The notes beneath the pieces were generated by a model. It had not been told where the DNA came from. It saw only the letters and a list, made by a program, of their open reading frames with translations, and made no database searches. Shown here piece after piece: positions 3,738 to 51,120 of a stretch of DNA of 52,633 nt. Made by a program: the position numbers and the translations under genes. Location of the stretch: NCBI GenBank assembly GCA_001781035.1, contig MFKK01000034.1, positions 1 through 52,633 on the forward strand, written 5' to 3'. Within the stretch, counting starts at the first letter, position 1. Each line of letters opens with the position of its first letter. This DNA is from Candidatus Jorgensenbacteria bacterium RIFCSPLOWO2_01_FULL_45_25b (GTDB taxonomy: Bacteria; Patescibacteriota; Minisyncoccia; UBA6257; GWB1-50-10).

Positions 3738-5192
3738 ATGACTAAAAAACACGTACATTTTGTGGGGGTTGGAGGCATAGGAATGAGCTCTCTTGCCCGA
3801 TGGTATTTGGCTCAAAATTGGGCTGTTTCGGGGTCTGACCTCTCCCCCTCTGAAATTACCAAAGAGCTTGAAAAGGAGGGCGTACGGGTCAAAATTGGGC
3901 ACAATTCCTCAAATTTGCCTCAAAAATTGAATGTTTTGGTGTATAGCAACGCTCTTCCGCAGAATACCCCTGAAATTGAGGGGGCGCGGAAATTGGGGGC
4001 TTCTGTTGTGAGCTATTCCGAGGCGTTGGGCGCTATTGCCAAAACATATACGACGCTTGCGGTTGCGGGGTCGCATGGAAAGAGCACGACGACCGCGCTT
4101 TTAGGTTTGTGTCTTCTTTCGGGCGGTTTTGACCCAACCGTTATTGTCGGAACGAAGGTGAAAGAGTTCGGCGGGAAAAATTTTCGTTTTGGAGGAGGCA
4201 AGTTTTTTGCGCTTGAGGCGGATGAGTATAAGGGAGCGTTTTTTCAATATGTTCCAACCTCTCTTATTATCACGAACATTGATAAGGAGCATTTGGATTT
4301 TTACAAGACGTTCGCGAACGTGAAGAGGGCGTTTTTGAGGTTTCTTGGGCAGGCGGTGCCGGGTGGGAAGTTTGTTTTCAATAGAGACGATGCTGTTTTG
4401 TGGGGATTACGGGCGCAGATTTTGCGTATCGCGAAAACGAAGCATTCGGAGATTCTTTGGTATTCGCTTCACTCCCCCATGGCGAAGAAGATTGAGCGAG
4501 TGTTGCGAATTCCCGGCAGGCACAATGTTTCAAACGCGCTCGCGGTTTATACGCTTGCCCGCGCGCTTGGCGTATTGGAGAGACGGATTTTTTCTGTCTT
4601 CCGAACATTTTCCGGTACGTGGAGGAGGATGGAGTACTGTGGCGATCTAAGGATCGCCACCGCGGATGAGCGCGGACTTGTACGCGGAAAAACGCGGAAA
4701 GAAACAAATGTTGAGGTGTACGATGATTACGCGCATCATCCGACGGAAATAAAGGCGACACTCTCTGCTTTTAAGCAATCCCCGTTAGAAGCAAAGCTTC
4801 TAACGGGGCAAGCCGCGAACGAACGCAAAAAGCGGAAGATTGTGTGCGTGTTTCAGCCTCATCAGGCGCATCGATTAAAATCGCTTTTTAAGGAGTTTGT
4901 TGATTCATTTCAAGATGCGGACGGACTTATTCTTCTTCCAACGTATCAGGTTCCTGGTCGGGATATTGCTTTGGACAAGCGATATTCATCCGAGGCGCTC
5001 GCGAAAGCAATCATCAGAAAGTATCCCCGAAAGCGTGTGTTGTATCTTGAAGACCCAAAAAGGCTGAAAGAGGAGATTTTCAATATGTTGCGCGGACTCC
5101 CCTCTTCGGACGGAGTTTTGGTTATGATGGGAGCGGGAGACATTTTTCAATTAACTTCGGAGTTGATTAAAAAAAGAATCTCTAATATCTAA
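3738..5192 (+). CDS. murC: UDP-N-acetylmuramate--L-alanine ligase
   Basis: Motifs 'HFVGVGGIGMS', 'GSHGKSTT', 'DDYAHHPTEI' and 'VFQPH' are present. The last codons and the stop lie inside a heptamer-repeat element. Confidence 0.9.
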   Translation: MTKKHVHFVGVGGIGMSSLARWYLAQNWAVSGSDLSPSEITKELEKEGVRVKIGHNSSNLPQKLNVLVYSNALPQNTPEIEGARKLGASVVSYSEALGAIAKTYTTLAVAGSHGKSTTTALLGLCLLSGGFDPTVIVGTKVKEFGGKNFRFGGGKFFALEADEYKGAFFQYVPTSLIITNIDKEHLDFYKTFANVKRAFLRFLGQAVPGGKFVFNRDDAVLWGLRAQILRIAKTKHSEILWYSLHSPMAKKIERVLRIPGRHNVSNALAVYTLARALGVLERRIFSVFRTFSGTWRRMEYCGDLRIATADERGLVRGKTRKETNVEVYDDYAHHPTEIKATLSAFKQSPLEAKLLTGQAANERKKRKIVCVFQPHQAHRLKSLFKEFVDSFQDADGLILLPTYQVPGRDIALDKRYSSEALAKAIIRKYPRKRVLYLEDPKRLKEEIFNMLRGLPSSDGVLVMMGAGDIFQLTSELIKKRISNI

Positions 5193-9987: not shown

Positions 9988-11385
9988 TTATTGATATTTC
10001 GCTATGTCTTCCTCATCTCCGAATATCGGAAGCCCGGATTGAGCCCCCGCTCTTCTTGATTCAACTCTTCGGAGGTGGGGCGCGGTCATAACGAGAATGG
10101 TTGGCGGATGAAAGAGAGAGGCAATCGCTTCGGTGTTTAAAATTGAAGTTTTCATCATGAAGTTCTGATTAAAAAAATGGGACGTGAGAAGCTTTCCCCA
10201 GAAGGTGTCTTTCGGCATCTCTCTTGTAAAGTAGTTCATTAGAAGGCGCTGTTTTCGGAATTGAACGCGTGTTTTTGGAAAGATATACGGGAATGCCCAG
10301 AGCTTTGCCCTGGTACTCATCGGTTCATTTAATATGAAGCCGTTTCTTCCCGCATCGCTGTACTGATTGAAGGCGCCGCGGATTCCCCTTCTCGCGTAGC
10401 TGTCGTAGAAGCCTTCCTGCGGGGCGATGTAGAGAAATCTTATGACGGTGTTAAAGGCGACCTTCCCGATATTATTCTCCATTTCCGTGAGCTTTTCCGT
10501 CTCTCCCGGAGAGCGAATGGAGATGCTTGTTTTCGCCTCTCCTTCCGGCGTAATAATCTGGCGCTTCGCGGTGTCTTCCTTGAACTTATCAATTATTTTT
10601 TGAGCGGGTTCCACCCAATCGGCGCTTGCCGGACAGATGAGAATTTGAACTCCCGCTATTTCGTTTTGTTTTATCTTCCCGAATACTTCAAGGAAATTTC
10701 CCATCGGGTCAACCCGCTTTTCTTCTCCCGGGTCGTCCAGAAAATGTTGATATGTTTTTATGGGGTAGACGGGATCTTTTTTTAATATCATGTCCGAGCC
10801 CCACATTTCATTTCCCGCCTCGTATATTTCCTTTGTGGTTTGAGGAAGGTGTTTCATGTAGTCTTCGCTTTTGACGAGTTCAATTTCTGGATAGTGGGCG
10901 AAGAAGGCCGCCTCCAGGAGTGTTTTCGCTTTTTCATATCCGCGGAAGTAAAAGTGTACCTCTCCCCCAAAGCTTATGATTTCCAAAGACATGTAGCGGG
11001 TTACCTCTCCGTCCCAGTAGATTTCTTTCGGATCGTCCGCCGTGTTTCGCAGGGAGTGAAGGCTCGCGAGCACCTGCTCCATCGCTTGCGGGCCTTTTTC
11101 GGTTTCTCGGGGAATGCGGATTTCATATACGATGTATTTTGTGTCGGCTTGAAAAATTTCTCTTCTCCAGAAGAGCCAGATGGAGAGGAAGTTTTTTATC
11201 ACAAACAAAAATAACCAGAACCACCAGGTTAGTTCAATGAATTTCATAAAGGCATTTTCAATTCCCAGTGGGAGAAAGAAAAAGATTCCCGCGAAACCCG
11301 CAATAAAGAGAATAATCCACACCTCCTCTTTTTTAAAAAGCTCTTCACCGGCATCCAGAATTATCTCTATCAGTTTTTTAAGCAT
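9988..11385 (-). CDS. Membrane protein (two N-terminal TM helices plus a large soluble domain), hypothetical
   Basis: Hydrophobic segments 'IILFIAGFAGIFFFLPLGI' and 'WWFWLFLFVIKNFLSIWLFW' are present. The coding frame is long and clean. I recognised no family motif. Confidence 0.6.
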   Translation of the reverse strand: MLKKLIEIILDAGEELFKKEEVWIILFIAGFAGIFFFLPLGIENAFMKFIELTWWFWLFLFVIKNFLSIWLFWRREIFQADTKYIVYEIRIPRETEKGPQAMEQVLASLHSLRNTADDPKEIYWDGEVTRYMSLEIISFGGEVHFYFRGYEKAKTLLEAAFFAHYPEIELVKSEDYMKHLPQTTKEIYEAGNEMWGSDMILKKDPVYPIKTYQHFLDDPGEEKRVDPMGNFLEVFGKIKQNEIAGVQILICPASADWVEPAQKIIDKFKEDTAKRQIITPEGEAKTSISIRSPGETEKLTEMENNIGKVAFNTVIRFLYIAPQEGFYDSYARRGIRGAFNQYSDAGRNGFILNEPMSTRAKLWAFPYIFPKTRVQFRKQRLLMNYFTREMPKDTFWGKLLTSHFFNQNFMMKTSILNTEAIASLFHPPTILVMTAPHLRRVESRRAGAQSGLPIFGDEEDIAKYQ

Positions 11386-11514
11386 TTGGTTTATTATACA
11401 TTACTTTTGACGCAGAATATAGAAATTTATATTAAGACTCAAGACTCAAGAAAAAAGACTCAGGAAACGAGAAATGGGGATATGGGAAATGAAGAAATAT
11501 GGAAAATTCTTGAT

Positions 11515-11548
11515 GCCTCAAAATTTAACGTACGTTAAATTTTGAGGC
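11515..11548. repeat. Perfect 34-bp palindrome
   Basis: The sequence 'gcctcaaaatttaacgt|acgttaaattttgaggc' has 17-bp arms and no loop. Confidence 0.8.
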
Positions 11549-11602
11549 AAGTGTTGAGCGAGCTTGAAATCATACTACTTGCTTCACGATTTGTTTTACG
11601 AC

Positions 11603-11630
11603 AAACCCCGACCACACGGTCGGGGTTTGT
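11603..11630 (-). terminator. Intrinsic terminator-like hairpin downstream of the HTH gene
   Basis: The GC-rich stem 'aaaccccgacc acac ggtcggggttt' is flanked by T/A runs on both sides. Confidence 0.6.
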
Positions 11631-11635
11631 TTGCT

Positions 11636-12652
11636 TTATGCTTCGCGGATGTCGTATTTTCCGGTTTCCAGCCTTCTGAAACGTTTTCTGTTTTGAAGAT
11701 TCAAGAGAATGGTGTTTTCCTTCAGGAAGCGTTTTTGATTTACCAGTTCAACCACTTCTTTTGAGTTCAGGGGGCCGTTTTCTTTTATGAGGTTTACGAT
11801 GACCTCGCGCACCGTTCCCGGAAGATAGCCGTATTCTTTGAGTCCATACATTCCCCTTCCGACCAGGACGAAGCGTTTGTCTTTGATTAGTTCGTTATGC
11901 ACCGTTTGCGTGTTTACCGGCTTCGCGCTGATTTTATTTTCGTGAATGAGCTTCGCGATTTGCTCAAAGTGGAGAGGCTTTCCATGTTTTTTAATCGCGA
12001 GATAGGCTTTGTCGCGCACGTTTTTCGGCTTGATTTCCGCCCATGTCATAAGCCCAAAATCTCCGAAGGCGTTTTTACCGAATTTTTTGGAGATTTGAAG
12101 GAGGCTTGAATTCGCGTATTCGTTTATTTTTTCCCTTAGTTCGGAATTTCCGAATATGCCTTCCCTTCCCGCTTCTTCAAAGAACGCTATCGCTTCTTTG
12201 ATGTAGTTCAACAGTTTTTCTTTTTCCTCCTTTCCGAGATGCCAGAAGCCCTTTGTGTCCGTTCCTTCTTTTTCGTAGAGAGGCTCTCCCGCCGCGAAAA
12301 AGAAAAATTGAATTTTGTTTTCAATGTTTTTTGCCGTGGGGTCAATGCCCAAAAGACGGGCAATGTTTCGCATGAAACCATACTCCTCTTCCACTCCCTC
12401 GCCTTCCCGAAGATAATTTTTCGCGATGTCCACAATTTCCCCAAAGCTTTTATTGATTTCTTTTTGAATTTTCAGAAGGCTCTGATTTTCAATCTGGCGA
12501 ACCCGCTCCCGAGTGATCGCCAAGACATCTCCAATTTCTTGGAGTGTTTCCTGTTTTCCCGCTAACCCATACCGTTTTACCATAATCCGTTTTTGTTTTG
12601 GGTTCAGGCTTTGGAGAATATTTTCTATCAGGTTTTCCAGGTTTATGACCAT
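11636..12652 (-). CDS. Sigma-70 region-4-like HTH protein with two HARE-HTH-like domains
   Basis: The N-terminus 'RYGL..ETLQEIGDVLAITRERVRQIENQSLLKI' is a region 4.2-type HTH. The C-terminus 'KPLHFEQIAKLI...DKRFVLVGRGMYGLKEYG' matches the RNA polymerase delta / HARE-HTH pattern. A second, weaker copy follows. Confidence 0.65.
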   Translation of the reverse strand: MVINLENLIENILQSLNPKQKRIMVKRYGLAGKQETLQEIGDVLAITRERVRQIENQSLLKIQKEINKSFGEIVDIAKNYLREGEGVEEEYGFMRNIARLLGIDPTAKNIENKIQFFFFAAGEPLYEKEGTDTKGFWHLGKEEKEKLLNYIKEAIAFFEEAGREGIFGNSELREKINEYANSSLLQISKKFGKNAFGDFGLMTWAEIKPKNVRDKAYLAIKKHGKPLHFEQIAKLIHENKISAKPVNTQTVHNELIKDKRFVLVGRGMYGLKEYGYLPGTVREVIVNLIKENGPLNSKEVVELVNQKRFLKENTILLNLQNRKRFRRLETGKYDIREA

Positions 12653-14973: not shown

Positions 14974-15200
14974 CAACCCCGTTAGAAAGTTTCGTATGAA
15001 AAAGGAGATTTGGTCTTGGTTTTTTGAAAAAAAACCCAGCGTAGTTTTCTCACTCATTCTCGCTCGTCCAGCGTCTCGCTCCGAGGTTTTGGTCGTTTTG
15101 CCCCGCCAAGGTGGGTACTATGCCCCCGCACAAATCCCTTCGGGATTCTGCAGGGCAGGCGAAAATGACCTCAAAATCCGTTCGGAAATCATGTTGGATT
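14974..15200 (+). ncRNA. Candidate structured RNA module X (copy 1), directly upstream of family copy B
   Basis: It shares 'CUCaCUCAUUCUCGCU', 'CCGAgG..', 'GGuCGUUUUGCCCCGCC' and a closing 'GGCGAAAAUGACC' with the reverse complement of 31961-32106. A G-U pair in the GGUCG/UGACC stem favours the plus strand. It begins with the box 'ACCCCGUUAG'. Confidence 0.35.
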
Positions 15201-15349: not shown

Positions 15350-15419
15350 TTTTGATTTCTCCAATTTTCTCTTTTGTGGTGTGAAAGAATATGTGAAGAT
15401 ATGATTATGTTTATTCTTT

Positions 15420-17966
15420 CTAACCGGGTTTATTTTTCATAACCTTGTCCCTAAAGAGGAATTTTCCCAGCTCAACTCCAAGAATATTAAATATGCCGAA
15501 GAGCAGGACTCCTCCCAGCCACGCGGGGGGCAGGGGCACGGTTCCCAGTGTGTTTTGGAGAGCGGGTATGTATATCGCGGATAGCATAAGTAAGATACCT
15601 GTTCCAACTCCCCCAGTCAGATATTTGTTGCTTAGGGGATTGTATGTGAAGATGCTTGTTTCCAATTTGCGAATAGAGAGCGCGAGAAGGAGCGTGTATA
15701 TTCCAAATGTCGCGAATATAAAGGTTCTTACCAAATTTTCGTCTATTCCTCTTCCTAAGAGGACAAGATACATAACGAGAAGGAGGGCGCTTGAAATTGT
15801 TCCTATAACACCTATTAGAAAGATTGTTTTCGCGTCAAATATATCCTTCACCGGTTTTGTTGTTTTTTTATCTCCTTCCTCAAACGCAAAAGCGATTGCC
15901 GGAAAACTATCCGAGAAAAAATTTACCCATAGAATTTGAAGCGCGTTTATCGGGAGGGCGATTCCCATGAGGAGAGAGCCTCCAATCAGGAAGAGTTCGT
16001 TTAATGAGTCGGAGAAAAGATAGATGATTGTTTTTTTGATGTTTTCCAGCATTCTTCTTCCTTCGTGGATAGCCGTTTGAATCGTCTCAAAGTTGTTATC
16101 AAGAAGAATGAGGTCGGAGGCTCCTTTTGCCACATCCGTGCCTGACCCCAAGGCGATTCCCACATCGGCTGTCTGAAGGGCGGGGGCGTCGTTTACTCCG
16201 TCTCCCGTCATCGCGACAACCTCTCCCTTTTTTTGCCACATCCGCGCGATTCTTACCTTATCTTCCGGAGTTATCCGCGCGAAAATTTTTACGTTTTTTA
16301 TACTTTCTGCTAGTTCTTTGTCGCTCATGGAAAGAAGCCTGCTTCCCGTTACAACTTCTTTTGATTCTTCATTTATTTCTATGCCGACTTCTTTCGCTAT
16401 CGCGATCGCGGTGCCCGCGTGGTCGCCCGTAGCTATCACGATTCGTATTCCGTTTTTGAGCGTTTGCTCTATTGTTTTTCTTACCTCTTTTCGGACGGAG
16501 TCTTTGCATACTAGAAGCCCGATAAATTTTTTATATTCTGTGACTCCGAGAACCCGCTCTCCGATTCTCGCGAGCGTATCGGTTTCTTTGATGATTTTTT
16601 CTTTTTCTTCTTTTCCTAAATTTGCCCTCTCGCTTATTATTTCGGGCGCTCCCACGTATATCCATCTTTCTTTTTTTCCCTTTTCCGCGATTAATGTTTC
16701 GCTGTATTTCTCCCGTGAATTGAAGGGATGATGGTCTATTACTTGAATTTCTTTTTCTGTTTCGGAGAAGAGAATTTCGTGTTCTTCCGCCGCTTTGATG
16801 ATCGCTTTTTCAAGCGGACTTTTGCTTTCCAGCCACCTCTCCTTCGCTATCCTCTCGGTTTTTACTGAAATATTCATTCCCGCGAGGGCAAGCTTCAGCA
16901 CATATTCTTTTTTCTCGTTTGTGATAATTTGGGTAAGTTTTAGGTTTGCTTCCGTCAGTGTTCCGGTTTTATCCGTTATGATAACCGTTGTTCTTCCCAG
17001 TGTTTCCGCCGCGAGGAGTTTTCGCACCACTCCTTTTTTCTTCGCGAGACGCTCCACTCCCACCGCGAGTATAACGGTTAGCGCGATTGGCAAACCTTCC
17101 GGCACCGCGGAAACTCCTATCGCGATGGAAACGATGAACATTTCAAGCATATTCTTGCCTTTCCACACCCCCAGAGCGAAGAGAATGCTTATGAAGGCAA
17201 GAAGCGCCAATGATGCCCGTAGCGCGAATGTTCTGATGGTTTTTTGGAGAGGAGTCTCTTTTTTTCTTTCTTGGGAGATGAGACTTGCTATTCTGCCGAG
17301 TTCGGTTTGGAAACCTGTGCTTACAACCACTCCTTCTCCGAATCCTTCCTCTACGTATGTTCCGGCAAAGACCATACTAGTTTGCTCTACTATGAGAGAT
17401 TTTTCGTTTACCGGTTTCGGGTTTTTTTCCACCGCGATAGATTCTCCCGTTAAAATAGATTCATTTACGAGGAGTTCGTTTACGACAAGGAGGCGGGCGT
17501 CTCCCGCTATTCGTTTTCCCGCGCGTAGAATGATGATATCTCCCGGCACAAGCTTTTCAGCGTCAATTTCTATTTCTTGATTTTCGCGAACAACTTCCGT
17601 CCGTTCTTTGACGTAGCTTTTTATGTTTTGAAGCGCTGTTTCCGCTTTGTGTTCCTGATAGAATCCAAGCGCGGAATTCACAATAACCGCTCCGAATATA
17701 AAGAGACCGCTTTTGAAATCACGAAGAATAAGGGCAATACTTCCTGAGCCTACTAGAATGAGAATAAGAGGGCTTTTAATCTGATTCCAGAGGATTTCCA
17801 GATGGTCTATTTCTGTTTTCTTTTCAATCGTGTTTTTTCCAAACACGCTTTGCCTCCGCTTTATTTCGTCTTCGCTTAACCCCTTCTCCCCGACTTCTAA
17901 AAGCCCCAGTGTTTTTTCCGGAGTGAGCGACCAGAAGGGATGTTTTATGGATTCTTTGGAAAGCAT
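15420..17966 (-). CDS. Cation-transporting P-type ATPase (P2-type, Ca2+/Mg2+-like)
   Basis: Motifs 'TGES', 'DKTGTLT' and 'TGDGVNDAPAL' are present, and the protein has about 10 TM segments. Confidence 0.9.
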   Translation of the reverse strand: MLSKESIKHPFWSLTPEKTLGLLEVGEKGLSEDEIKRRQSVFGKNTIEKKTEIDHLEILWNQIKSPLILILVGSGSIALILRDFKSGLFIFGAVIVNSALGFYQEHKAETALQNIKSYVKERTEVVRENQEIEIDAEKLVPGDIIILRAGKRIAGDARLLVVNELLVNESILTGESIAVEKNPKPVNEKSLIVEQTSMVFAGTYVEEGFGEGVVVSTGFQTELGRIASLISQERKKETPLQKTIRTFALRASLALLAFISILFALGVWKGKNMLEMFIVSIAIGVSAVPEGLPIALTVILAVGVERLAKKKGVVRKLLAAETLGRTTVIITDKTGTLTEANLKLTQIITNEKKEYVLKLALAGMNISVKTERIAKERWLESKSPLEKAIIKAAEEHEILFSETEKEIQVIDHHPFNSREKYSETLIAEKGKKERWIYVGAPEIISERANLGKEEKEKIIKETDTLARIGERVLGVTEYKKFIGLLVCKDSVRKEVRKTIEQTLKNGIRIVIATGDHAGTAIAIAKEVGIEINEESKEVVTGSRLLSMSDKELAESIKNVKIFARITPEDKVRIARMWQKKGEVVAMTGDGVNDAPALQTADVGIALGSGTDVAKGASDLILLDNNFETIQTAIHEGRRMLENIKKTIIYLFSDSLNELFLIGGSLLMGIALPINALQILWVNFFSDSFPAIAFAFEEGDKKTTKPVKDIFDAKTIFLIGVIGTISSALLLVMYLVLLGRGIDENLVRTFIFATFGIYTLLLALSIRKLETSIFTYNPLSNKYLTGGVGTGILLMLSAIYIPALQNTLGTVPLPPAWLGGVLLFGIFNILGVELGKFLFRDKVMKNKPG

Positions 17967-18140: not shown

Positions 18141-19379
18141 TCATGATTTTGAAATTTCGTGACGAAAATCTTTGCGCAGTAGGTCTAATTTATTTTCTTT
18201 AATTGCCGTTCGGATTTGTTCCATAAGGTTGTTGAAGAAGAAGACGTTGTGGATGGTCGCGAGGCGGGCGGCTGAAGGCTCTTTCAGCTTGAAGAGTTCG
18301 TGGAGGTCTTTGCGGCGGATGTTTTTTTCACCGCATGTTTCGCAGGCGCAATTCTTTTCAATCGGTTCGGAGTTTGTTTTTTGACCGCCTTTCATCATAT
18401 CAATCGCGCCGTTTTTCGTCCAAAGGCGTCCATGTCGCGCTTCGCGGGTCGGAATCACGCAGTCAAAGGTATCAATTCCCGCTTCCACGCCGTCAAACAA
18501 GTCTTCTATTTTTCCTATTCCAAGAAAGTGGCGCGGTTTTTCTTCAGGGAGTAGAGGGAGCGTCCAATCCAAAATTTCAAACATGTTGTTTCGCGATCTT
18601 CCAAGAGAGCCTCCTATCGCGAAGCCGTCAAATGGCAGAGAACCGATGTATTTCGCGCTTTCTTCCCGAAGGTCGCGAAATTCTCCGCCCTGTACAACTC
18701 CATAGAGCAACTGTTGTTGCTCTATGGAGTTGTAAGTTGAAAGTTGCAAGTTTGCTTTTGATTCGTGTTCTTCTAGGCAGATTTTTTCCCACGCGTGCGT
18801 GCGGGCGAGAGATTTTTTTGTGTATTCGTAATCGTGAAGCGGAGAGGTGCACTCGTCAAAGGCAATTATGATGTCGGCTCCCAATTTATGCTGAATTTGT
18901 ATTGATTCTTTGGGGCCTAAAAACTGCTCTTCTTTTTCCGTTGTCCCCCCCACATCGCTCGGGACAAGAAAATATGCGCCTTCATCCGTAATACGAACAC
19001 GAGATCGTAACTCGTAAGATTTACGAGTTACGATCTCGTAAGATTTTTCTATTTTCCCTACGCCGTGCTCCCGGCTGGAACCAAGGCTAAATACCTGAAA
19101 ACCGCCCGAATCGGTCATGATGGGGCCCTGAAAGCCAAGTTCGTTGTGAACTCCCTGGTATGTTTTTAACCCCTCGTTTCCCAGCCGTTGCCAGAGATGG
19201 TAGGTATTCGCAATCACAACCTGTGTTTTGGTTTTTATCAGGTCTTCCGGCGTTAGGGTGCGCACTTTCGCGTGGGTGCCGACAATGACATAGGCGGGGG
19301 TTTCAATGATGCCGTGAGAAGTGTGAATTGCGCCCGCGCGGGCGCGGGAGGTTTTGTCTTTTTTCTGGATTTCCAGCAT
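18141..19379 (-). CDS. tgt: Queuine/guanine tRNA-ribosyltransferase with two palindrome-derived in-frame insertions
   Basis: Motifs 'DSGGFQVFS', 'AFDECT', 'GVVQGG', 'FDGFAIGG', 'DCVIPTR' and the zinc motif 'CxC..C' are present. It aligns with E. coli Tgt except for extra segments of about 30 and 11 aa. Confidence 0.9.
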   Translation of the reverse strand: MLEIQKKDKTSRARAGAIHTSHGIIETPAYVIVGTHAKVRTLTPEDLIKTKTQVVIANTYHLWQRLGNEGLKTYQGVHNELGFQGPIMTDSGGFQVFSLGSSREHGVGKIEKSYEIVTRKSYELRSRVRITDEGAYFLVPSDVGGTTEKEEQFLGPKESIQIQHKLGADIIIAFDECTSPLHDYEYTKKSLARTHAWEKICLEEHESKANLQLSTYNSIEQQQLLYGVVQGGEFRDLREESAKYIGSLPFDGFAIGGSLGRSRNNMFEILDWTLPLLPEEKPRHFLGIGKIEDLFDGVEAGIDTFDCVIPTREARHGRLWTKNGAIDMMKGGQKTNSEPIEKNCACETCGEKNIRRKDLHELFKLKEPSAARLATIHNVFFFNNLMEQIRTAIKENKLDLLRKDFRHEISKS

Positions 19380-37941: not shown

Positions 37942-39786
37942 TCATTTTTTCGCGAGGGCTTCGCGGAGCGCTTTTCGGAGTTCGTTTACATCATCTTTTG
38001 ATGATTTTTCTTTTTCTTTTGGTTTCATATCTTTTGGTTTTAGGTCGGCGAGCCCTATTTCTTTTTGTTTTTCGCCGTATTTTATGGAGGCAAATTTTTC
38101 TTCCAGTTTATCAATGATGGACTTGTGACTGCCATCCCGAACTTCTCCTCCCCGCTTTTTTTCTTGAAAATGCTGTTTTTTTTGATTTTGTCGCTCCACT
38201 TCTCCGGATTTTTCTTTGCCATTTCCCTCTCCCGCTATTTTTTGTTTTTGCTTGCGCATTTCTTTTTCCTCTTCCACTTCAATTCCTATTTCTCCGAGGT
38301 TCGCGAAGTATTTGTTTTTCGCTTTTTTGAAATCTTTTTCGCTTGGAATCGCGGTTATTTTTCCCTCTTTCACTTTTTTCAGACAGTCAATGCAATAGAT
38401 TGGCTTTCCTGGCGTCGGTTCAAAATTTAAAACAGTTTCTTTGCCGCAGACGTCGCAGACAGCCTCTACTTTCGGCGCTACGTTGGTGTTGCTCCACTTT
38501 TCAATTTCACTCTCAACTATTTTTCTCGGGCGGGCGTAGAGTCTTCTTGAGCGTTCAATGATTTCTTCCGCAGGCAGTACCGTTCTGGGAATTTTGAAGG
38601 GCGGAAGGGTGGTCGCGGAGAAGGGTCTTGATGTGATGCCGTCTACCATGAGTTTCAGATAAATGTGATAGTTTGGAATTCCTACCATGTCTATGGGAAC
38701 GAATTCCGGTTCAAATTCGCTTTCCAGAAATTCAGCGTCTGTCGCGCCTATACGGAAGATGACCATAGTTCCCGCGTTTCCGAAGACGGCATCGCGGACT
38801 TTTGTTGAAATATCCGTTTCTAACTGTCCGATATATTGATGGGCAATTGTGAGATTTAGGCGGTACTTCCTCGCTTCGGAGAGGACGTTCGCGAACGAGT
38901 CTGTCGCGAAATTTTGAAACTCGTCCACGTAGAGATAAAAATCCAGGCGTTCTTCTTCGGGAATGCGCACGCGTTCCATCGCGGAGAGCTGGATTTTGGT
39001 GATAAGCATGCCTCCCAGAAGCGCGGAATTATCCTCCCCTATCTTTCCTTTGGAGAGGTTTATCAGAAAAATTTTTCCGCTGTTCATGATATCAAAGATG
39101 TCTATGGTGCTTTTGTTTTGCCCAACGATGTTTCGGATGAGCGAGGTTGATAAGAACTGTCCCACCTTGTTTTGAATCGGCGCGATTGCTTCGTTTCTGA
39201 ACTGGTCGCGCCATTCTTCATACTCATGCACCCAGAAGGCGCGGACGACGGGGTCTTTTATGTTTTCCACGATTCGTTGGCGGAAATCCTTGTCTACGAG
39301 AATCCGATTGATTCCGAGGAGAGTGCTTCCGGGCGTTTCTACGAGCGCGAGGATGGCATTGTTTAAGATATATTCCATGCGCGCCGACCAGACGTTTGAC
39401 CAGATTTTTGTAAAAATACTCATCAAGCCCGAGGCGACCAGATTTTTATATTGCGGGTCGGGCATTTCAAGCACGTTGAAGCCTATGTGATATTCGGTAT
39501 CCGAGGGGTTGAAGTATATTACGTCCTCTTTTCTTGACGCGGGAATTTTCGAGAGGACGCTTTCCACGAGCTCTCCGTGCGGGTCTACAACGCACAGGCC
39601 TTCGCCGTTTTCAATATCTTGAACAATGAGATTGTGGAGGAAGGTGCTTTTTCCCGTTCCGGTTTTTCCGACGACGTAGAGATGCTGGCGCCGATCTTTT
39701 CGCTTGATGCCGAAGAGCCTGTTTTGGTTTCTAAAGTTGGTTCGCCCAAAATACACGACATCATCCTTGTTGCGAGCCTTTTCCAT
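37942..39786 (-). CDS. Second soluble VirD4/TraD-like ATPase with a C-terminal zinc ribbon and a Lys/Glu-rich tail
   Basis: It is a paralogue of 7749-9200: 'VGKTGTGKS', 'DPHGEL', 'FYLYVDEFQN', 'RKYRLNLTIAHQYIGQL'. It adds 'CDVCGKE...PGKPIYCIDC' and a ~150 aa charged tail. I placed the start at ATG 39786; the ORF-track start is 39834. Confidence 0.75.
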   Translation of the reverse strand: MEKARNKDDVVYFGRTNFRNQNRLFGIKRKDRRQHLYVVGKTGTGKSTFLHNLIVQDIENGEGLCVVDPHGELVESVLSKIPASRKEDVIYFNPSDTEYHIGFNVLEMPDPQYKNLVASGLMSIFTKIWSNVWSARMEYILNNAILALVETPGSTLLGINRILVDKDFRQRIVENIKDPVVRAFWVHEYEEWRDQFRNEAIAPIQNKVGQFLSTSLIRNIVGQNKSTIDIFDIMNSGKIFLINLSKGKIGEDNSALLGGMLITKIQLSAMERVRIPEEERLDFYLYVDEFQNFATDSFANVLSEARKYRLNLTIAHQYIGQLETDISTKVRDAVFGNAGTMVIFRIGATDAEFLESEFEPEFVPIDMVGIPNYHIYLKLMVDGITSRPFSATTLPPFKIPRTVLPAEEIIERSRRLYARPRKIVESEIEKWSNTNVAPKVEAVCDVCGKETVLNFEPTPGKPIYCIDCLKKVKEGKITAIPSEKDFKKAKNKYFANLGEIGIEVEEEKEMRKQKQKIAGEGNGKEKSGEVERQNQKKQHFQEKKRGGEVRDGSHKSIIDKLEEKFASIKYGEKQKEIGLADLKPKDMKPKEKEKSSKDDVNELRKALREALAKK

Positions 39787-39927
39787 GTTTTTATTATAGC
39801 AGATAACTTCATTTGACCCCGTTAGAAAGAACAAATATTATTCTGTCTTTATATACTCTTCTTGTTGCGACACAGGGGGACTTTCTAACGGGGTTTGACT
39901 TTTTTTCGTTTTTTATGTTTAGTTTAT

Positions 39928-42893: not shown

Positions 42894-43178
42894 CAAATAT
42901 AAAACGATATCACGATAAAATAGTTACTTTATGTTTGGGATTGAACGCCTTCCTTAAATCATTCCAACATTCTCAAGAATGTTGGAATGTTATTTTGTTG
43001 GTTGCGTGGACAGAAAGGTTTGGCCGCGAAGATTTTGTCGTAATGAAGTGGTGTGTTCTAACGAAATGGCTGCTGTTTTTTATATGATTTGAAGCTATGT
43101 GTCAATAATTTTTAAAATACTTTATTTGACATAAATTAGATTTTGTTTTACTCTATTTTTTAGAAAGGCGGGCCGGTC

Positions 43179-45900: not shown

Positions 45901-46037
45901 GATCTTTTGTCTACCGGCATATCCTACTTTCCCAGTCAAAAAAGACAAGTATCATCAGACGAAAACGCTTTCACTTCTGTGTTCGGAATGGGAACAGGTG
46001 GATCTCGTTTACGCTAAACACCGGCAGGCAAAAGATC
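45901..46037 (-). rRNA. rrf: 5S rRNA with an extended terminal helix
   Basis: The reverse complement contains 'CCACCUGUUCCCAUUCCGAACACAGAAGUGAAAGCG'. The ends 'GAUCUUUUGCCUGCCGG' and 'CCGGUAGACAAAAGAUC' pair. Confidence 0.9.
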
Positions 46038-46450
46038 TAAAATGTTTTGTTGAAAGTAAACTTTTTAAGGTAGAAGTTTATCCTCTGCGTGAGGTATAAA
46101 AGTGTATTGCTCGAATAAGCAAGGTGGGATTTATTAGTACTCCTCGGCTCCATCCCTTGCGGGACTTCCACCTAGAGCCTATCAACCTGGTAGTCTTCCA
46201 GGAATCCATGATGCATTATCTTGGGAGGGGCTTCGTGCTTAGATGCCTTCAGCGCTTATCCCTTCCGAACATAGCTACCCAGCGATTCACCTGGTGGCAA
46301 AGCTGGTAGACCAGAGGTTCGTTCAACCCGGTCCTCTCGTACTAGGGTCAACTTCCCTCAAGCATCGTAACGCCGACAGTAGATAGAGACCAACCTGTCT
46401 CACGACGGTTTGAACCCAGCTCGCGTACCACTTTAATTGGCGAACAGCCA

Positions 46451-46483
<33 letters not shown>

Positions 46484-46497
46484 GTGAGCCGACATCG

Positions 46498-47331
46498 CAT
46501 CTTCTCTATTATTACTAATAGCGTGGACTATATCTTCATCCTTTTTATCTTAAAAAGGAGCTGACGTGTTAGCTGGAAACCATGTTTCCAACTCTGCCTC
46601 GTTGCAACCCAATGCATAAGGCAAGTCTCTACGGGGTTATAACTCAATTTTATATCTCATTGAAGGAATGATTTCTTTATCTAGTATTTTTCGCAATATA
46701 GCAAGTGAAGATTTTAGAAAACGCAACCGATAATACTGTTTATCTTTATTAAGAGTCGCTTTTAGATTGAGCTTTTGAAGTGCTCGCACTAACTTTTTCT
46801 GATCTTGAATGCTAAATTGTTGAGTATTCAGATATATGTCATTGGTTTTACAACGACTTCCATCATCCATGAACCAGACTGCTAAACTTGTTGGATCTAG
46901 GGTAAGGTTTGCAGGAATTACCTTTTTCGTTTTTCTATAAAAGAGTTGATGCAGAGCGGTTAGCTCTGATAACTGCTTTGAGTAGAAACGATAGGCAATT
47001 CTTGTTCCATTACTTTTCCGCATTTTGGGCGGAGAACCGGAAATATTTTTTAATATTTTATATTTCCAATCAACATATTCTTTTTGGGCAAAAGAATGAT
47101 TGATTTCCAAAAGAGCATGTTTTCTTTTTGGAATGATTCTTAGATAACCATCTCCCAAAAGCGTTCCAACAATCAATGATTTTTGTTGTTGAGTTAAACT
47201 TCCCACGGTATTGTCCATATAATGATTCTATCATTTCACTGTATGGAGTTCACCGTTATAAGTCAGATTTTTCTTTGATCGCATCACAGCGATCGGGAAT
47301 GAGATTACTCTCATTGCACCCCAATGTGTTA
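46498..47331 (-). mobile_element. Intron (group I-like) in 23S domain V carrying a LAGLIDADG ORF
   Basis: On the plus strand the conserved string 'gagccgacatcg|aggtgcc' is interrupted by ~834 nt. Joining the flanks restores the 'GGCACCUCGAUGUCGGCUC' consensus, at about E. coli position 2500. Confidence 0.8.
46637..47218 (-). CDS. LAGLIDADG homing endonuclease (double-motif)
   Basis: Both motifs are present, 'LIVGTLLGDGYL' and 'LAVWFMDDGS'. The gene lies wholly within the 23S intervening sequence. Confidence 0.9.
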   Translation of the reverse strand: MDNTVGSLTQQQKSLIVGTLLGDGYLRIIPKRKHALLEINHSFAQKEYVDWKYKILKNISGSPPKMRKSNGTRIAYRFYSKQLSELTALHQLFYRKTKKVIPANLTLDPTSLAVWFMDDGSRCKTNDIYLNTQQFSIQDQKKLVRALQKLNLKATLNKDKQYYRLRFLKSSLAILRKILDKEIIPSMRYKIEL

Positions 47332-47952
47332 AGGTGCCGAGCTCCGTCGTCGATGTGGACTCTCGGACGGAACCAGCCTGTTATCCCCGGAGTAGCTTTT
47401 ATCCGTTATCTCCGACCTTCCTATAAAGATTCGTCGGGTCGCTAAGCTCTGCTTTCGCACCTGCGCGACTTGTATGTCTTGCAGTTAAGCTGGCTTTTGC
47501 CTTTACGCGTCCAGCCCGATTTCCATCCGGGCTAAGCCAACCTTAATAGACTCCTCCGTTACTTTTTGGGAGGAATCCGCCCCAGATAAACTGCCCACCA
47601 GGCACTGTCTCCACGGCGTTTTGCGCCGCAGGTTAGATATTAACAACTAAAAGATGGGTATTTCACTGACGGCTCCATCCCATCCGAAAACAGGACTTCA
47701 AAGCCTCCCCACTATGCTACGCATCCAGACATTAATACCAATACCAAGCTACAGTAAAGCTTCCGGGGTCTTTTCGTCTTACTGTCGGTATCCCGCGTCT
47801 TCACGGGAATCGCATTTTCATCGGGCTCCTCGTTGAGACAGTTCTCCAGTCGTTACACCTTTCGTGCGCTCCGGAACTTACCCGGAAAGGAATTGCGCTA
47901 CCTTAGAACGGTTATAGTTACCGCTGACATTGACGAGGGCTTCGGACAGTAA

Positions 47953-48160
47953 GCCGCACCTCACTACGGTTCGGTGCGTACAGAAATAAATAGAAATTGA
48001 TAGAAATATGCTTCGCGAAATTAACCCCACCCCTCCCTCCCCTAAGACTTAGGGGAGGGAGACGGAGGGAGAGGTTAGTCTCTATTGAATTTCTATGAAT
48101 TTCGTCCCGAATAAAGTGAGGGACATATTTCTGTCGCATCGAACGATAGTGAGATGCGAC
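47953..48160. other. ~190-nt expansion segment at the tip of 23S helix 68 (E. coli ~1870)
   Basis: The conserved flanks 'GGUAAC..CCCUCGUC' and 'GGUUAACGAUGG' are separated by ~215 nt here, against ~28 nt in E. coli. The insert is a long imperfect hairpin with the apical stem 'cccctccctcccctaagacttaggggagggag' and the inverted arms 'acagaaata..' / '..tatttctgt'. Confidence 0.75.
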
Positions 48161-48830
48161 CTCCATCGTTAACCTTCTCGCATCGGTCAGGTGTCACCCC
48201 CTATACATCCTCTTACGAGTTCGCAGGGAGCTGTGTTTTTGTTAAACAGTCGCCAGAGAAACTTTCGCTGCGGGCGTGCTTACGCGCGCCAGGCCTTATC
48301 CCGAAGTTACGGCCGCTTTTTTGCCGAGTTCCTTAACGAGGACTCACCCGTTCCCCTTGGGCTTCTCGCCCTATCCACCTGTGGCGGTTTCCGGTACGGA
48401 TTCCATACTTCAACCTTAGAGGTTTTTCTTGAACGCGCGCTCTATCAACTTGCGTCGACACGTATGCCAACACTTGCCTCTACTCTGGAGTTTGCGACTA
48501 AACGCAGAGACGCGGATTTGCCTACGCCTCACTCTCGAGTCAAGGATGCCAAACCATTAAGACACTTAATGTACTGCGCGTTGTCCCCCCATCGGACTAT
48601 GAAATACGGAAGGGCTGGAATATTAACCAGCTGTCCATCAGCTTCGGCTTTCGCCATTGCCTTAGGGCCGCCTCACCCTCCGCCGATTCGCGTTGCGGAG
48701 GAAACCTTGGATTTTCGGGGAGCCGGTTTTTCACCGACTTTGTGATTACTCATGCCAGCATTCTCTCTTCCTAACGCTCCAGTCGCCCTCACGGATCAAC
48801 CTTCAGCGCATTAGGAATGCTCTCCTACCA

Positions 48831-49008
48831 CGCCTCGCGCTTTGCGCGAGGAAATCCTAAGCTCTAAATTCTAAATCCTAAACAATATCAAAACTCAAAT
48901 GACCGAAACTCAAAACATTTTGTTTTAAGTGTTTGGATTTTGAATTTAAAATTTGTTTAGAGTTTAGAGATTAGAATTTAGAATTTCCTTGTGCAAAGCA
49001 CAAGACAT
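48831..49008. repeat. Intervening sequence at 23S helix 45 built from an AATTTCT-family hairpin
   Basis: Between the conserved 'CCGAAG' and 'GGUAGGAGAGC' blocks lie three hairpins: CUUGUGC-UUU-GCACAAG, a ~140-nt heptamer-repeat hairpin, and CCUCGCGC-AAA-GCGCGAGG. Confidence 0.8.
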
Positions 49009-49684
49009 TCGCATCTTCGGTACCTTGCTTAGCCCCGGTAAATTTTCGGCGCCATCATCCTCGAATAGTGAGTTGTTACACACTCTTTAAAGGATGGCTA
49101 CCTCTGAGCCAACCTCCTATCTGTTTATGGATAATGACCACCTTTCACACTTAGCAACTCCGATACCCTTGCGGAGATCGGAGTCCCGACTTCACGTCGG
49201 GAGAATTTAGGGACCTTAGATGGCGATCTGGGCTCTTCCCCTCTCGACCACGGAGCTTAGCCCCCGCAGTCTGACTGCTAATGAACAACTCATGGTATTC
49301 GGAGTTTGATTGATCGTCCGAGCTTGCGCCCAGTGACGATCATCCAGTGCTCTACCCCCACGAGTCTATTTAATTAACGCTAGCCCGAAAGCTATTTCGG
49401 AGAGAACCAGCTATTACCAAGTTCGATTAGTTTTTCGCTCCTTACCCCAATTCATCCGAGAGTTTTGCACGGCTCACCGGTTCGGACCTTCATTCGATTT
49501 TACTCGAACTTCATCCTGATCAGGGCAAGCTCACCTGGTTTCGGGTCTTACACGTACTGCTTAATCGCCCTATTAAGACTCGCTTTCGCTACGCCTCCTC
49601 CCGCTTGGCGGGATTAGACTTGCAACACATGCAAACTCGCTGGCTCATTCTTCAATAGGCACGCCGTCACTCGCCGTTGCACAG

Positions 49685-49846
49685 CAGCGGAATTTCTAAT
49701 TTCTAATCTCTAATTTCTAAACAAACCCAAATGATAGAATGACTAATGACTAAAACAATTTAAGTTTAGACATTACACATTTTGACATTAGAAATTTATT
49801 AGATATTAGTAATTAGGAATTAGTTATTCCGATGCTGCGCATCGGT
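49685..49846. repeat. Intervening sequence at 23S helix 25, hairpin cassette copy 1
   Basis: The cassette reads 'gcacagcagcgg aatttctaatttctaatctctaatttctaaac ... gatagaatgactaatgactaaaacaattta ... attagaaatttattagatattagtaattaggaatt ... ccgatgctgcgc'. Confidence 0.85.
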
Positions 49847-50202
49847 TGAGCTCCGGCTCTTTGTAAGTAAGTGGTTTCAGATACTATTTCATCGCCCTCA
49901 CCGGGCTGCTTTTCACCTTTCCCTCACGGTACTGGTTCACTATCGATCACCAAATGTATTTAGCCTTACCAGATAGTACTGGCAGATTCCCTCAAGGTTA
50001 TCTTGGCCTTGAGGTACTCAAGAACAAGAACGATTGGTCACTTTGTTTTCGCCTACGAGGCTTTCACTCACTATGGCTGTCCTTTCCAGAACATTTGACT
50101 AACAAAGTGATTTGTAACCAATTACCAAATAAACTTCCGTAGCTCCGGAAATTTCCGAAGCTTCAGAAGTTTTTTGGAATGTTCTCGCCTTACAACCCCC
50201 GC

Positions 50203-50374
50203 CGCTGCACAGCAGCGGAATTTCTAATCTCTAATTTCTAATCTCTAATTTCTAAATAAATCCGAATGATAGAATGACTAATGACTAAAACAATTTACGT
50301 TTAGACATTTAAGCATTTTAACATTAGAAATTTATTAGATATTAGTAATTAGAAATTCCGATGCTGTGCATCGA
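50203..50374. repeat. Hairpin cassette copy 2 in 23S domain I (E. coli ~270-280)
   Basis: It has the same base stem, heptamer arms and central 'gatagaatgactaatgactaaaacaattta' core as 49685-49846. On the rRNA strand it lies just 3' of 'GUAGCGGCGAGCGAA..CAGCCC'. Confidence 0.85.
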
Positions 50375-50474
50375 CAGGTTTGGGCTGTTCCCTTTTCGCT
50401 CGCCGCTACTTGGGGAATACAAATTTGTCTCTTTTCCACCAGGTACTTAGATGTTTCAGTTCCCTGGGTGCGCT

Positions 50475-50631
50475 CCACTGCGTAGCAGCGGAATTTCTAA
50501 TTTCTAATATCTAATTTCTAAATAAATCCGAATGATAGAATGACTAATGACTAAAACAATTTACGTTTAGACATTAGAAATTTATTAGATATTAGTAATT
50601 AGGAATTAGTTATTCCGATGCTACGCACTGG
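50475..50631. repeat. Hairpin cassette copy 3 in 23S domain I (E. coli ~140)
   Basis: It is the same cassette, lying between 'CCGAAUGGGAAAACCC..' and 'GGGAACUGAAACAUCUAAGUA' on the rRNA strand. Confidence 0.85.
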
Positions 50632-51120
50632 TTACCGCGTTTTACACGGCAGGGTTTTCCCATTCGGAAATCTCCGGATCAAAGGTTGCTACACACCTCC
50701 CCGAAGCTTATCGCAGTTACGCCACGTCCTTCATCGCCATTTGGTGTCAAGGCATCCACCACCTACCCTTAACTTGCTTACATGAGCAATTTCACTTTTA
50801 TCTTACATATATGATATGCAAGAAACTTCTACCTTAGAAAGTTTACTTTCTTAACTGCCTATTTCGCCTGCTTGCGGGGCGAAATGAGGCTATGAAGTTT
50901 TCAAAGTTCAAGAAAGCATCCATACCGTCGGAGCGCCAATGTTGAGGTCGGCTTGTTTCGGCCGCAACATTGAGGCTCTTTTTCTGTCTTTGTTTCGCGT
51001 GTGAAGAAATAAAAATCCCGCCAGGTCTTGGCGGGCCGACACATCAATAATATAGGGCTTTCTTCACCCGTGTCTCCCACCTTGATATGTATTGGCTTTT
51101 TTCATTAGCAGTAAGTACCA

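Follow-up and report, generated by a model that had tools for sequence, protein, structure and literature searches.

Perfect in-frame palindromes in the tgt gene of a Patescibacteria genome: coding inverted repeats probably made and renewed by template switching

This report concerns contig MFKK01000034.1 of Candidatus Jorgensenbacteria bacterium RIFCSPLOWO2_01_FULL_45_25b (assembly GCA_001781035.1), the whole 52,633-nucleotide (nt) stretch of which is called the window below, and in it the gene tgt, encoding tRNA-guanine transglycosylase, which houses two long perfect palindromes that were probably produced by local template switching during replication. The gene lies on the minus strand at 18141-19379 and was identified from its open reading frame (ORF), PF01702 and matches to PDB structures. 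Its 412-residue product is spanned almost end to end by PF01702 (E=1.7e-112), matches solved structures of E. coli-type Tgt at ~3e-82, and carries the features expected of a bacterial Tgt, namely the TGT domain, the DSGGFQ catalytic motif, the zinc site CxCxxC...H and the QGG motif. Across 22 aligned Patescibacteria Tgt proteins, D90, C344, C346, C349, H377 and Q230-G232 do not vary, in agreement with a sequence-only reading of this DNA, which had held all catalytic motifs to be intact. The surrounding genes are housekeeping ones (M50 peptidase, ribosome recycling factor, DNA polymerase III delta' subunit, MreB and P-type ATPase) in an order conserved among relatives, which retain the arrangement M50 peptidase-tgt-P-type ATPase.

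Palindrome 1 (18693-18734, minus strand, as for all features of tgt given below) has two perfect arms of 19 nt around a 4-nt loop, encodes Y216-V229 (YNSIEQQQLLYGVV) and lies at the C-terminal edge of a variable loop of the protein, loop 2. Palindrome 2 (18999-19039) has 19-nt arms (18999-19017 and 19021-19039, 100% complementary) around a 3-nt loop, and encodes Y114-R127 (YEIVTRKSYELRSR) in variable loop 1. The sequence-only reading had placed both correctly and in frame with arms of 17 nt, and its translations, YNSIEQQQLLYGVV and KSYEIVTRKSYELRS, were right. With hyphens setting off the loops, the coding strand reads TAC AAC TCC ATA GAG CAA C-AA CA-G TTG CTC TAT GGA GTT GTA in palindrome 1 and (T)AC GAG ATC GTA ACT CGT AA-A TC-T TAC GAG TTA CGA TCT CGT in palindrome 2, so that the mRNA loops are AACA and AUC, respectively. 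Such arms are far outside chance expectation: in 30 first-order Markov shuffles of the 52.6-kb window no perfect arm (loop of at most 12 nt) exceeded 12 nt, and the window has seven hairpins with arms of 11 nt or more against 0.17 expected from such shuffles, the two in tgt being the longest. Predicted RNA folding energies are -32.9 kcal/mol (z=-10.3) for palindrome 1 and -30.5 kcal/mol (z=-8.9) for palindrome 2, and either strand of each folds at ~-30 to -33 kcal/mol with z between -8 and -10. The outer end of palindrome 1 is overlapped by a tandem array at 18728-18752 (AGTTGAA on the plus strand, TNCAACT in the mRNA, encoding ANLQLSTYN), in which Tandem Repeats Finder recognises 3.6 copies of a period of 7 (units GCAAACT, TGCAACT, TTCAACT and TACAACT); what had been described as GTTGAAA-like heptamers is therefore a genuine array.

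Perfect fold-backs resemble the inverted chimeras of multiple displacement amplification, or fold-back reads, and the source of the window is a metagenome assembly; however, an origin of the palindromes in assembly or amplification is practically out of the question. The exact window Tgt protein is present on at least nine contigs, and the tgt DNA of three further assemblies (L001-L003: ENA ERZ4903055, JGI 3300002502 and JGI 3300025317), which stem from different samples, assemblers and pipelines, shows 0 differences from that of the window. A strain variant from a fourth sample (L004, ERZ27254732) differs by 20 single-nucleotide polymorphisms (SNPs) in tgt, a divergence of 1.6%, and keeps both palindromes intact. 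Because the same DNA recurs in other assemblies and both palindromes survive in a diverged strain, they are not assembly artefacts. Both moreover keep the frame at a site well inside a long contig, and seven other organisms have related hairpins at the corresponding codons. In the strain variant, 17 of the SNPs cluster at gene positions 632-834, and none falls within the 42 nt of palindrome 1, the nearest lying at positions 632, 633 and 643 upstream and 690 downstream; this avoidance inside the cluster (P~0.02) is suggestive only, and, taken over the entire gene, the palindromes are not significantly depleted of SNPs (P=0.25).

The location of the palindromes in the protein clarifies what they have, and have not, contributed to it. 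Compared with E. coli-type Tgt, loop 1 (between FSLG and ITDEG) is longer by ~25 residues and loop 2 (before QLLYG) by 11. The sizes of about 11 and about 30 extra residues proposed earlier are therefore nearly right (11 for loop 2, ~25, plus 6, for loop 1), although the order of the two numbers was judged to be swapped. The idea that these residues are the product of the palindromes for the most part does not hold. Across the 22 aligned Patescibacteria proteins both loops are hypervariable in length and sequence, and in many of these proteins they contain simple repeats such as SHSHGHGH or KVSEVSKVS. Since this hypervariability is common to Patescibacteria Tgt, the loops predate the palindromes, which account for a few codons of them, ~4-6 each. 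The expectation that the insertions would map to surface loops was borne out by the alignment and by an AlphaFold model (mean pLDDT, the predicted local distance difference test score, 84; pTM, the predicted template modelling score, 0.86), in which both sites fall in low-confidence loops, with pLDDT below 50 at residues 102-124, 142-148 and 212-220. One arm of palindrome 1 is the exception in that it encodes a confident strand, residues 224-229, running into QGG. The outcome at the protein level is probably a short new, disordered peptide rather than a new activity. A third variable region of Tgt, after WQ at residues ~70-80, also contains a palindrome in one relative (L134 3211-3239, in the gene for P0029): it is in frame and perfect, 11+7+11 (SHNVTSCDDVTLE, with arms and loop AATGTAACGTC-TTGCGAT-GACGTTACATT), and encodes NVTSCDDVTL.

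Palindrome 1 shows most directly where an arm can come from. Its mRNA 3' arm (GTTGCTCTATGGAGTTGTA, 18693-18711) encodes the (Q)LLYGVV strand, part of the motif QLLYG(I/V)VQGG that is conserved in 22/22 aligned orthologues, and is native sequence. Its mRNA 5' arm (TACAACTCCATAGAGCAAC, 18716-18734), encoding YNSIEQ, is derived, as comparison with the orthologues L129 and L086 makes clear, in which TAC AAC and AAT AAC, respectively, are followed directly by TTT CAA CTx. The corresponding stretch in L129 is TAC AAC TTT CAA CTC TTA TAC GGA ATA GTG, that is 30 nt against the 42 nt of the window, a gain of 12 nt or four codons. The outer TACAAC of palindrome 1 is ancestral and common to L129, and the inner 13 nt of the derived arm are an inverted copy, which upholds the earlier suggestion that this palindrome is an inverted copy of adjoining native coding sequence. 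A quasi-palindrome of 7+16+7 nt (TACAACT/AGTTGTA) filled in from the complementary strand would yield exactly 19+4+19. Palindrome 1 is limited to the window lineage. At the equivalent position L086 has a related TTTCAAC heptamer array, and the two arrays look like slippage seeded on the CAA CTT of QLLYG.

Palindrome 2 has a different history, in which a new inverted copy appears to have been added to an old hairpin. Within its mRNA 5' arm lies an inner palindrome, TTACGAG-ATCGTAA-CTCGTAA (19021-19041, SYEIVTRK), that has the same codons and phase as loop-1 hairpins of relatives and aligns codon for codon with the SYEVRPRK hairpin of L087. The other part, comprising the loop and the mRNA 3' arm (TTACGAGTTACGATCTCGT, 18999-19020, SYELRS(R)), is without counterpart in relatives. 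Palindrome 2 thus has the form a-b-a'-loop-a-b'-a', and KSYE is duplicated, which is reported as a period-24 repeat. Its 3' arm finishes in the ancestral CGT of RVRITDEG. At the site of the inverted copy L005 has GTC AGG AGA GAA AAT (VRREN in place of SYELRS), after which it is identical to the window in CGT GTT CGT ATT ACG GAT GAA GGC. From this arrangement we infer that the 3' arm is a secondary inverted duplication of the older a-b-a' hairpin. As an observation in its own right, the 24 nt shared by the window and L005 at RVRITDEG hint at mosaic tgt alleles. A further protein, P0002 (396 residues, source SRR3989344), equals the window protein P0001 over its ~140 N-terminal residues except for S121I, the palindrome-2 peptide included, and its remainder is identical to P0007, the protein of L005; it has arisen either by natural recombination or as an assembly chimera.

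In loop 1 the hairpin is of long standing and common to a clade, and its two arms change together. When the fetched tgt loci were all scanned for perfect hairpins, homologous loop-1 hairpins were recognised at matching codons in the window and in L005, L086, L087, L127, L131, L133 and L134, at 51-69% protein identity, with an identical reading phase throughout and a Glu codon GAG pairing with CTC. Five lineages have perfect arms, of 19 nt in the window, 16 nt in L127 (P0005, 66% identity to the window; TCAATGTTTAGAGGTT-A-AACCTCTAAACATTGA, encoding NQCLEVKPLNIE), 13 nt in L005 (64%; ACTTTTAGAGACC-G-GGTCTCTAAAAGT, KLLETGSLKV), 11 nt in L087 (56%; CTTACGAGGTC-C-GACCTCGTAAG, SYEVRPRK) and 9 nt in L086 (69%, matching P0004 in both variable loops; TTTTGAGGC-CGA-GCCTCAAAA, VFEAEPQN). 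The hairpin is recognisable yet imperfect in L133 (P0003), L131 (P0011) and L134 (P0029, 51%), and the scan for perfect hairpins found none in loop 1 of the close orthologue L129 (P0006). In more distant Patescibacteria (L088-L093, L006-L017 and others), RNAfold z-scores of the tgt loop regions reveal no excess of structure, which confines the hairpin to the clade closest to the window; nor were in-gene hairpins found at the loops of the distant tgt genes (at most 45% identity) that made up most of the matches listed in a broader scan. A back-translation test of loop peptides from 124 Tgt homologues was set aside, its background being too high (many conserved Ser-, Arg- and Leu-rich sites could accommodate arms of 12-22 nt); it yielded only P0003, P0005 and P0029 as leads, which were then examined on the actual DNA.

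In an alignment of the eight sequences, hand-centred on the hairpin, 82.7% of cells are paired, and 9 of the 13 pairs have changed on both sides. One pair takes the states AU, UA, GC and CG and is paired in 8/8 sequences. The covariation score is 0.505, against 0.186+-0.043 for shuffled data (0/500 reach it), and does not exceed 0.134 when partners are slid by 1-3 columns. Since changes occur on both arms in pairs across orthologues, perfection has been maintained and is not simply a sign of youth. The earlier view that perfect arms imply recent events consequently holds in part: the 19-nt extent is specific to a species-level lineage, but the core of the loop-1 hairpin is shared down to 51% identity.

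Long retention with paired changes is also what selection for a functional structure would produce, be it an mRNA stem-loop acting on translation rate, stability or RNase III cleavage, a cruciform in the DNA or a site bound by a protein dimer. In its favour, the hairpin is kept at the same codons in eight sequences, the predicted stems are very stable, and the L087 stem allows extension by two G-U pairs plus one further Watson-Crick pair. Nevertheless, we regard such a function as unlikely, and consider it just as improbable that the paired changes stem from purifying selection on pairing rather than from mutational bias. The pattern is all or nothing, with perfect arms that vary widely in length (9 to 19 nt) and in sequence in five lineages and decay in three others. 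Given that the hairpin is absent in L129 and decayed in L131, L133 and L134, it is lost too freely to resemble a required element. The loop sequences (AUC, C, G, A and CGA) have nothing in common, and palindrome 1 has no equivalent beyond its own lineage. Template switching yields the same paired changes without selection (PMC5941160, PMC8794818).

Particular functional identities fared no better. Palindrome 2 is flagged as terminator-like on both strands, but its tails are weakly T-rich, the T-rich tail is missing in relatives, whose hairpins are without a T-tract, and palindrome 1 has none; an intrinsic terminator or attenuator was rejected. Rfam gives no match for tgt at the gathering threshold, the miRNA-like hairpins below it scoring 24-27 bits against cut-offs of 70-90. 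Mimicry of the substrate of Tgt itself, which would call for a hairpin carrying UGU in a loop of 7 nt, was rejected as well, since the sole UGU lies antisense, within the even-sized loop of palindrome 1, and no 7-nt UGU loop occurs.

Sequence is also shared between the two loops. At the other edge of loop 2, L133 has the palindrome TTTAGAGGTT-C-AACCTCTAAA and L005 the palindrome TGTTTAGAG-ATTCAAC-CTCTAAACA; in each case native QCLE codons, belonging to the conserved WEKxCLE helix, form the left arm, and PLN is encoded by the right arm. The 30-nt QCLE module (loop 2 of L133 or L005) is identical at 26/30 positions to the loop-1 palindrome of L127, whereas the loop-1 palindromes of L127 and L005 are identical at just 17/30. 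The module has therefore been copied or converted between two loops ~290 nt apart.

We consider it probable that both palindromes are products of local replication template switching (fold-back), accompanied by 7-nt slippage, with arms that are homogenised and with surface loops as their setting in which nearly any sequence is tolerated. The process would begin where a short pre-existing inverted microhomology lets the nascent strand prime on a complementary copy, candidates being TACAACT...AGTTGTA for palindrome 1 and, for palindrome 2, the ancestral TTACGAG...CTCGTAA hairpin together with ACG/CGT. Fold-back or cross-fork copying of the nearby complementary strand would then produce an inverted copy, and once the polymerase returned, this copy would take the place of the spacer, leaving a long perfect palindrome with a loop of 3-4 nt. 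Only events that keep the frame, such as the +12 nt of palindrome 1, would survive. Later switching could correct mutations or copy them from arm to arm, and through such copying the arms would stay perfect and evolve in concert with no need for a function. Like hairpins in the two loops might convert each other in the same manner, which would account for the QCLEVxPLN module occupying loop 2 in some orthologues but loop 1 in another. The observations form a five-part pattern that fits template switching between arms: a native arm with its reverse complement (QLLYGVV in palindrome 1, QCLE in L133 and L005), in-frame gains in tolerant loops, hairpins that are either perfect or decayed, changes mirrored on both arms (the 9/13 pairs of the hand-centred alignment), and a module shared by two loops.

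Several points weigh against this explanation. The seed GTT GTA (VV, not IV), assumed to be ancestral, is found only in the window lineage, relatives having ATC/ATA GTA/GTG. The evidence consists of assembled contigs, and the sole strain variant already has both palindromes. Selection on the hairpin likewise predicts long retention with paired changes. Hand-centring the covariation alignment favours structure, though codon frame and flanks independently back homology. Finally, of the five perfect hairpins (arms of 11 nt or more) that long ORFs contain across ~138 kb of Patescibacteria loci, four belong to tgt; this concentration speaks for a function and is not obviously accounted for by mutation and tolerance alone, and the cases are related by descent.

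The remaining alternative, that small mobile palindromic elements such as Rickettsia palindromic elements (RPEs), repetitive extragenic palindromes or miniature inverted-repeat transposable elements were inserted in frame, had been suggested by analogy with RPEs, and we find it very improbable. RPEs form a family of elements of ~100-150 bp, dispersed in many copies and united by a consensus. The palindromes of tgt resemble them in being in frame, palindromic and located in surface loops, and the near-identical 30-nt module at two tgt positions in different orthologues might suggest mobility. However, in the ~52 kb of genome that could be searched, each arm matches itself and its partner alone (52.6 kb, at most 3 mismatches), and hairpins of the type TTxxGAG...CTCxxAA are confined to tgt in all loci examined, the flanks of relatives included. 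The two palindromes have no common consensus and, at 41-42 nt, are far below the size of RPEs. As one arm is native coding sequence in palindrome 1 and in the QCLE palindromes of relatives, no foreign insertion is needed. No transposase or recombinase is found among the genes neighbouring tgt, and the window contains no tRNA or tmRNA gene with which an integration site might be associated.

A further point in favour of mobile elements comes from murC (coding sequence 3738-5192, plus strand). At 4780-4808 of the window, in frame, lies a perfect 13+3+13 palindrome, CCCCGTTAGAAGC-AAA-GCTTCTAACGGGG, that encodes SPLEAKLLTG and sits within a 14-residue insertion relative to solved MurC structures. 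Together with the two in tgt it brings to three the perfect hairpins that protein genes of the window contain with arms of 13 nt or more, and there are no others. It is built of the motif CCCCGTTAGAA, which is also found at three intergenic sites. The murC palindrome may be a second case of the phenomenon seen in tgt, but since its arm motif recurs in intergenic DNA, its origin may differ. The motif, in the form (A)CCCCGTTAGAA(AG), occurs six times at one mismatch or fewer, against 0.9 expected, and 0/100 shuffles reach six; the sites are 14977-14987, 39817-39827, 39883-39893, 4780-4790, 4798-4808 and, with one mismatch, 15418-15428. By eye, the three intergenic copies stand just upstream of promoter-like -35/-10 sequences, two of them as a divergent pair 51 nt apart (39816-39894), and the motif may be regulator-binding or promoter-associated.

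The window has other features that we record here. Between the genes at 9988-11385 and 11636-12652 lies a perfect 36-nt palindrome without spacer (11514-11549, TGCCTCAAAATTTAACGT-ACGTTAAATTTTGAGGCA), which looks like an operator, adjoined by a terminator-like 13+4+13 hairpin at 11601-11630. An intergenic perfect palindrome at 42960-42989, CATTCCAACATTCT-CA-AGAATGTTGGAATG, resembles CCATTCTCACGTTCT-CA-AGAACGTGAGAATGG upstream of tgt in L129 (5863-5894), and this type may be a conserved operator motif of the clade. Long perfect spacer-less palindromes with arms of 17-22 nt are present upstream of tgt in L091, L127 and L129. The 23S rRNA gene (46115-50779, minus strand) is 4665 nt long against a model of 2925 positions, with ~1.7 kb of insertions, and contains ORFs at 46637-47218 (minus) and 48191-48745 (plus) and a perfect 14+1+14 hairpin at 48033-48061; such insertions are usual where rRNA genes of Patescibacteria contain introns. 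The 5S rRNA gene lies at 45912-46025. In an otherwise housekeeping region, the ORF at 37942-39834 (minus strand) has Pfam domains of a VirD4/TraG-like type IV coupling protein (TrwB_AAD_bind, TraG-D_C and a treble-clef zinc finger).

Read as the work of template switching, the tgt locus is a bacterial example of how replication fold-back errors and slippage make new coding sequence inside an essential-type enzyme, and of how a perfect palindrome can persist for long in a gene without mobility or need for function. It also calls for caution in comparative analyses, in which paired "compensatory" changes and clustered amino-acid replacements may be mistaken for selection on RNA structure or for positive selection acting on the protein. 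If the process were common in Patescibacteria, it would offer a mechanism for insertions in conserved proteins, for example the loops of Tgt and MurC. As a tentative extension that we hold to be rather doubtful, hairpin-templated copying might regularly build and renew lineage-specific insertions in housekeeping proteins of these streamlined bacteria, with the murC palindrome as a second example and the loop-1 hairpin of tgt acting as a self-perpetuating "selfish" coding palindrome. Such a palindrome may have persisted since the common ancestor of the clade with 51-69% identity, jumping between tgt loops and occasionally expanding; in a stronger version, the hairpin may have been co-opted as a regulatory structure for tgt expression. 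The parts most worth following are the long-lived hairpin with concerted evolution of its arms, and the module common to two loops.

Comparison with known systems sets the locus in context. Taken as template-switch products, the tgt palindromes are coding inverted repeats made and kept by a phenomenon already known elsewhere, although a literature search returned no report of such palindromes in Patescibacteria or in tgt. In Proteobacteria, inverted repeats are perfected and conserved through template switching (Lavi et al. 2018, PMC5941160); in yeast it rewrites several adjacent codons in coding genes (Abraham & Hazkani-Covo 2021, PMC8604942), and according to Monttinen & Loytynoja (PMC8794818) it can create and maintain RNA hairpins through one-step compensatory changes. 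The tgt locus shares with those systems a perfect repeat derived from adjacent sequence, a short inverted microhomology, here assumed to have been there beforehand, at the outer ends, mirrored multi-nucleotide changes, perfect repeats conserved across species and amino-acid replacements within genes. It differs in that its arms are of 19 nt, against repeats that are typically of 5-8 nt in those surveys, its events added codons (+12 nt) and were not substitutions alone, its hairpin can be traced through orthologues to ~51% protein identity, and one module occurs in two loops of the gene.

Like RPEs, the tgt palindromes show that conserved proteins can accommodate palindromic DNA in frame in their surface regions. 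RPEs lose repeat identity over time (PMC6649704), whereas the palindromes of tgt are confined to a single locus, are partly native (one arm of palindrome 1) and remain perfect. The closest parallel described is offered by the mitochondria of Nematomorpha, which have perfect coding palindromes whose arms, as the authors propose on the strength of a like perfect-or-decayed pattern, are converted by template switching, so that the repeats preserve themselves without a function (PMC6649704). There, as in tgt, functional protein genes carry inverted repeats in frame, which tend to be perfect or else decayed, with few intermediates, and which are gained and lost between species. The Nematomorpha repeats are many per genome, up to 284 bp long, with both arms encoding conserved protein regions, and are located in mitochondrial DNA (PMC6649704). 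Unlike them, tgt has two per gene, of 41-42 nt, on a bacterial chromosome with three palindromes (arms of at least 13 nt) across ~40 genes, and their derived arms are found in disordered, hypervariable loops with pLDDT below 50.

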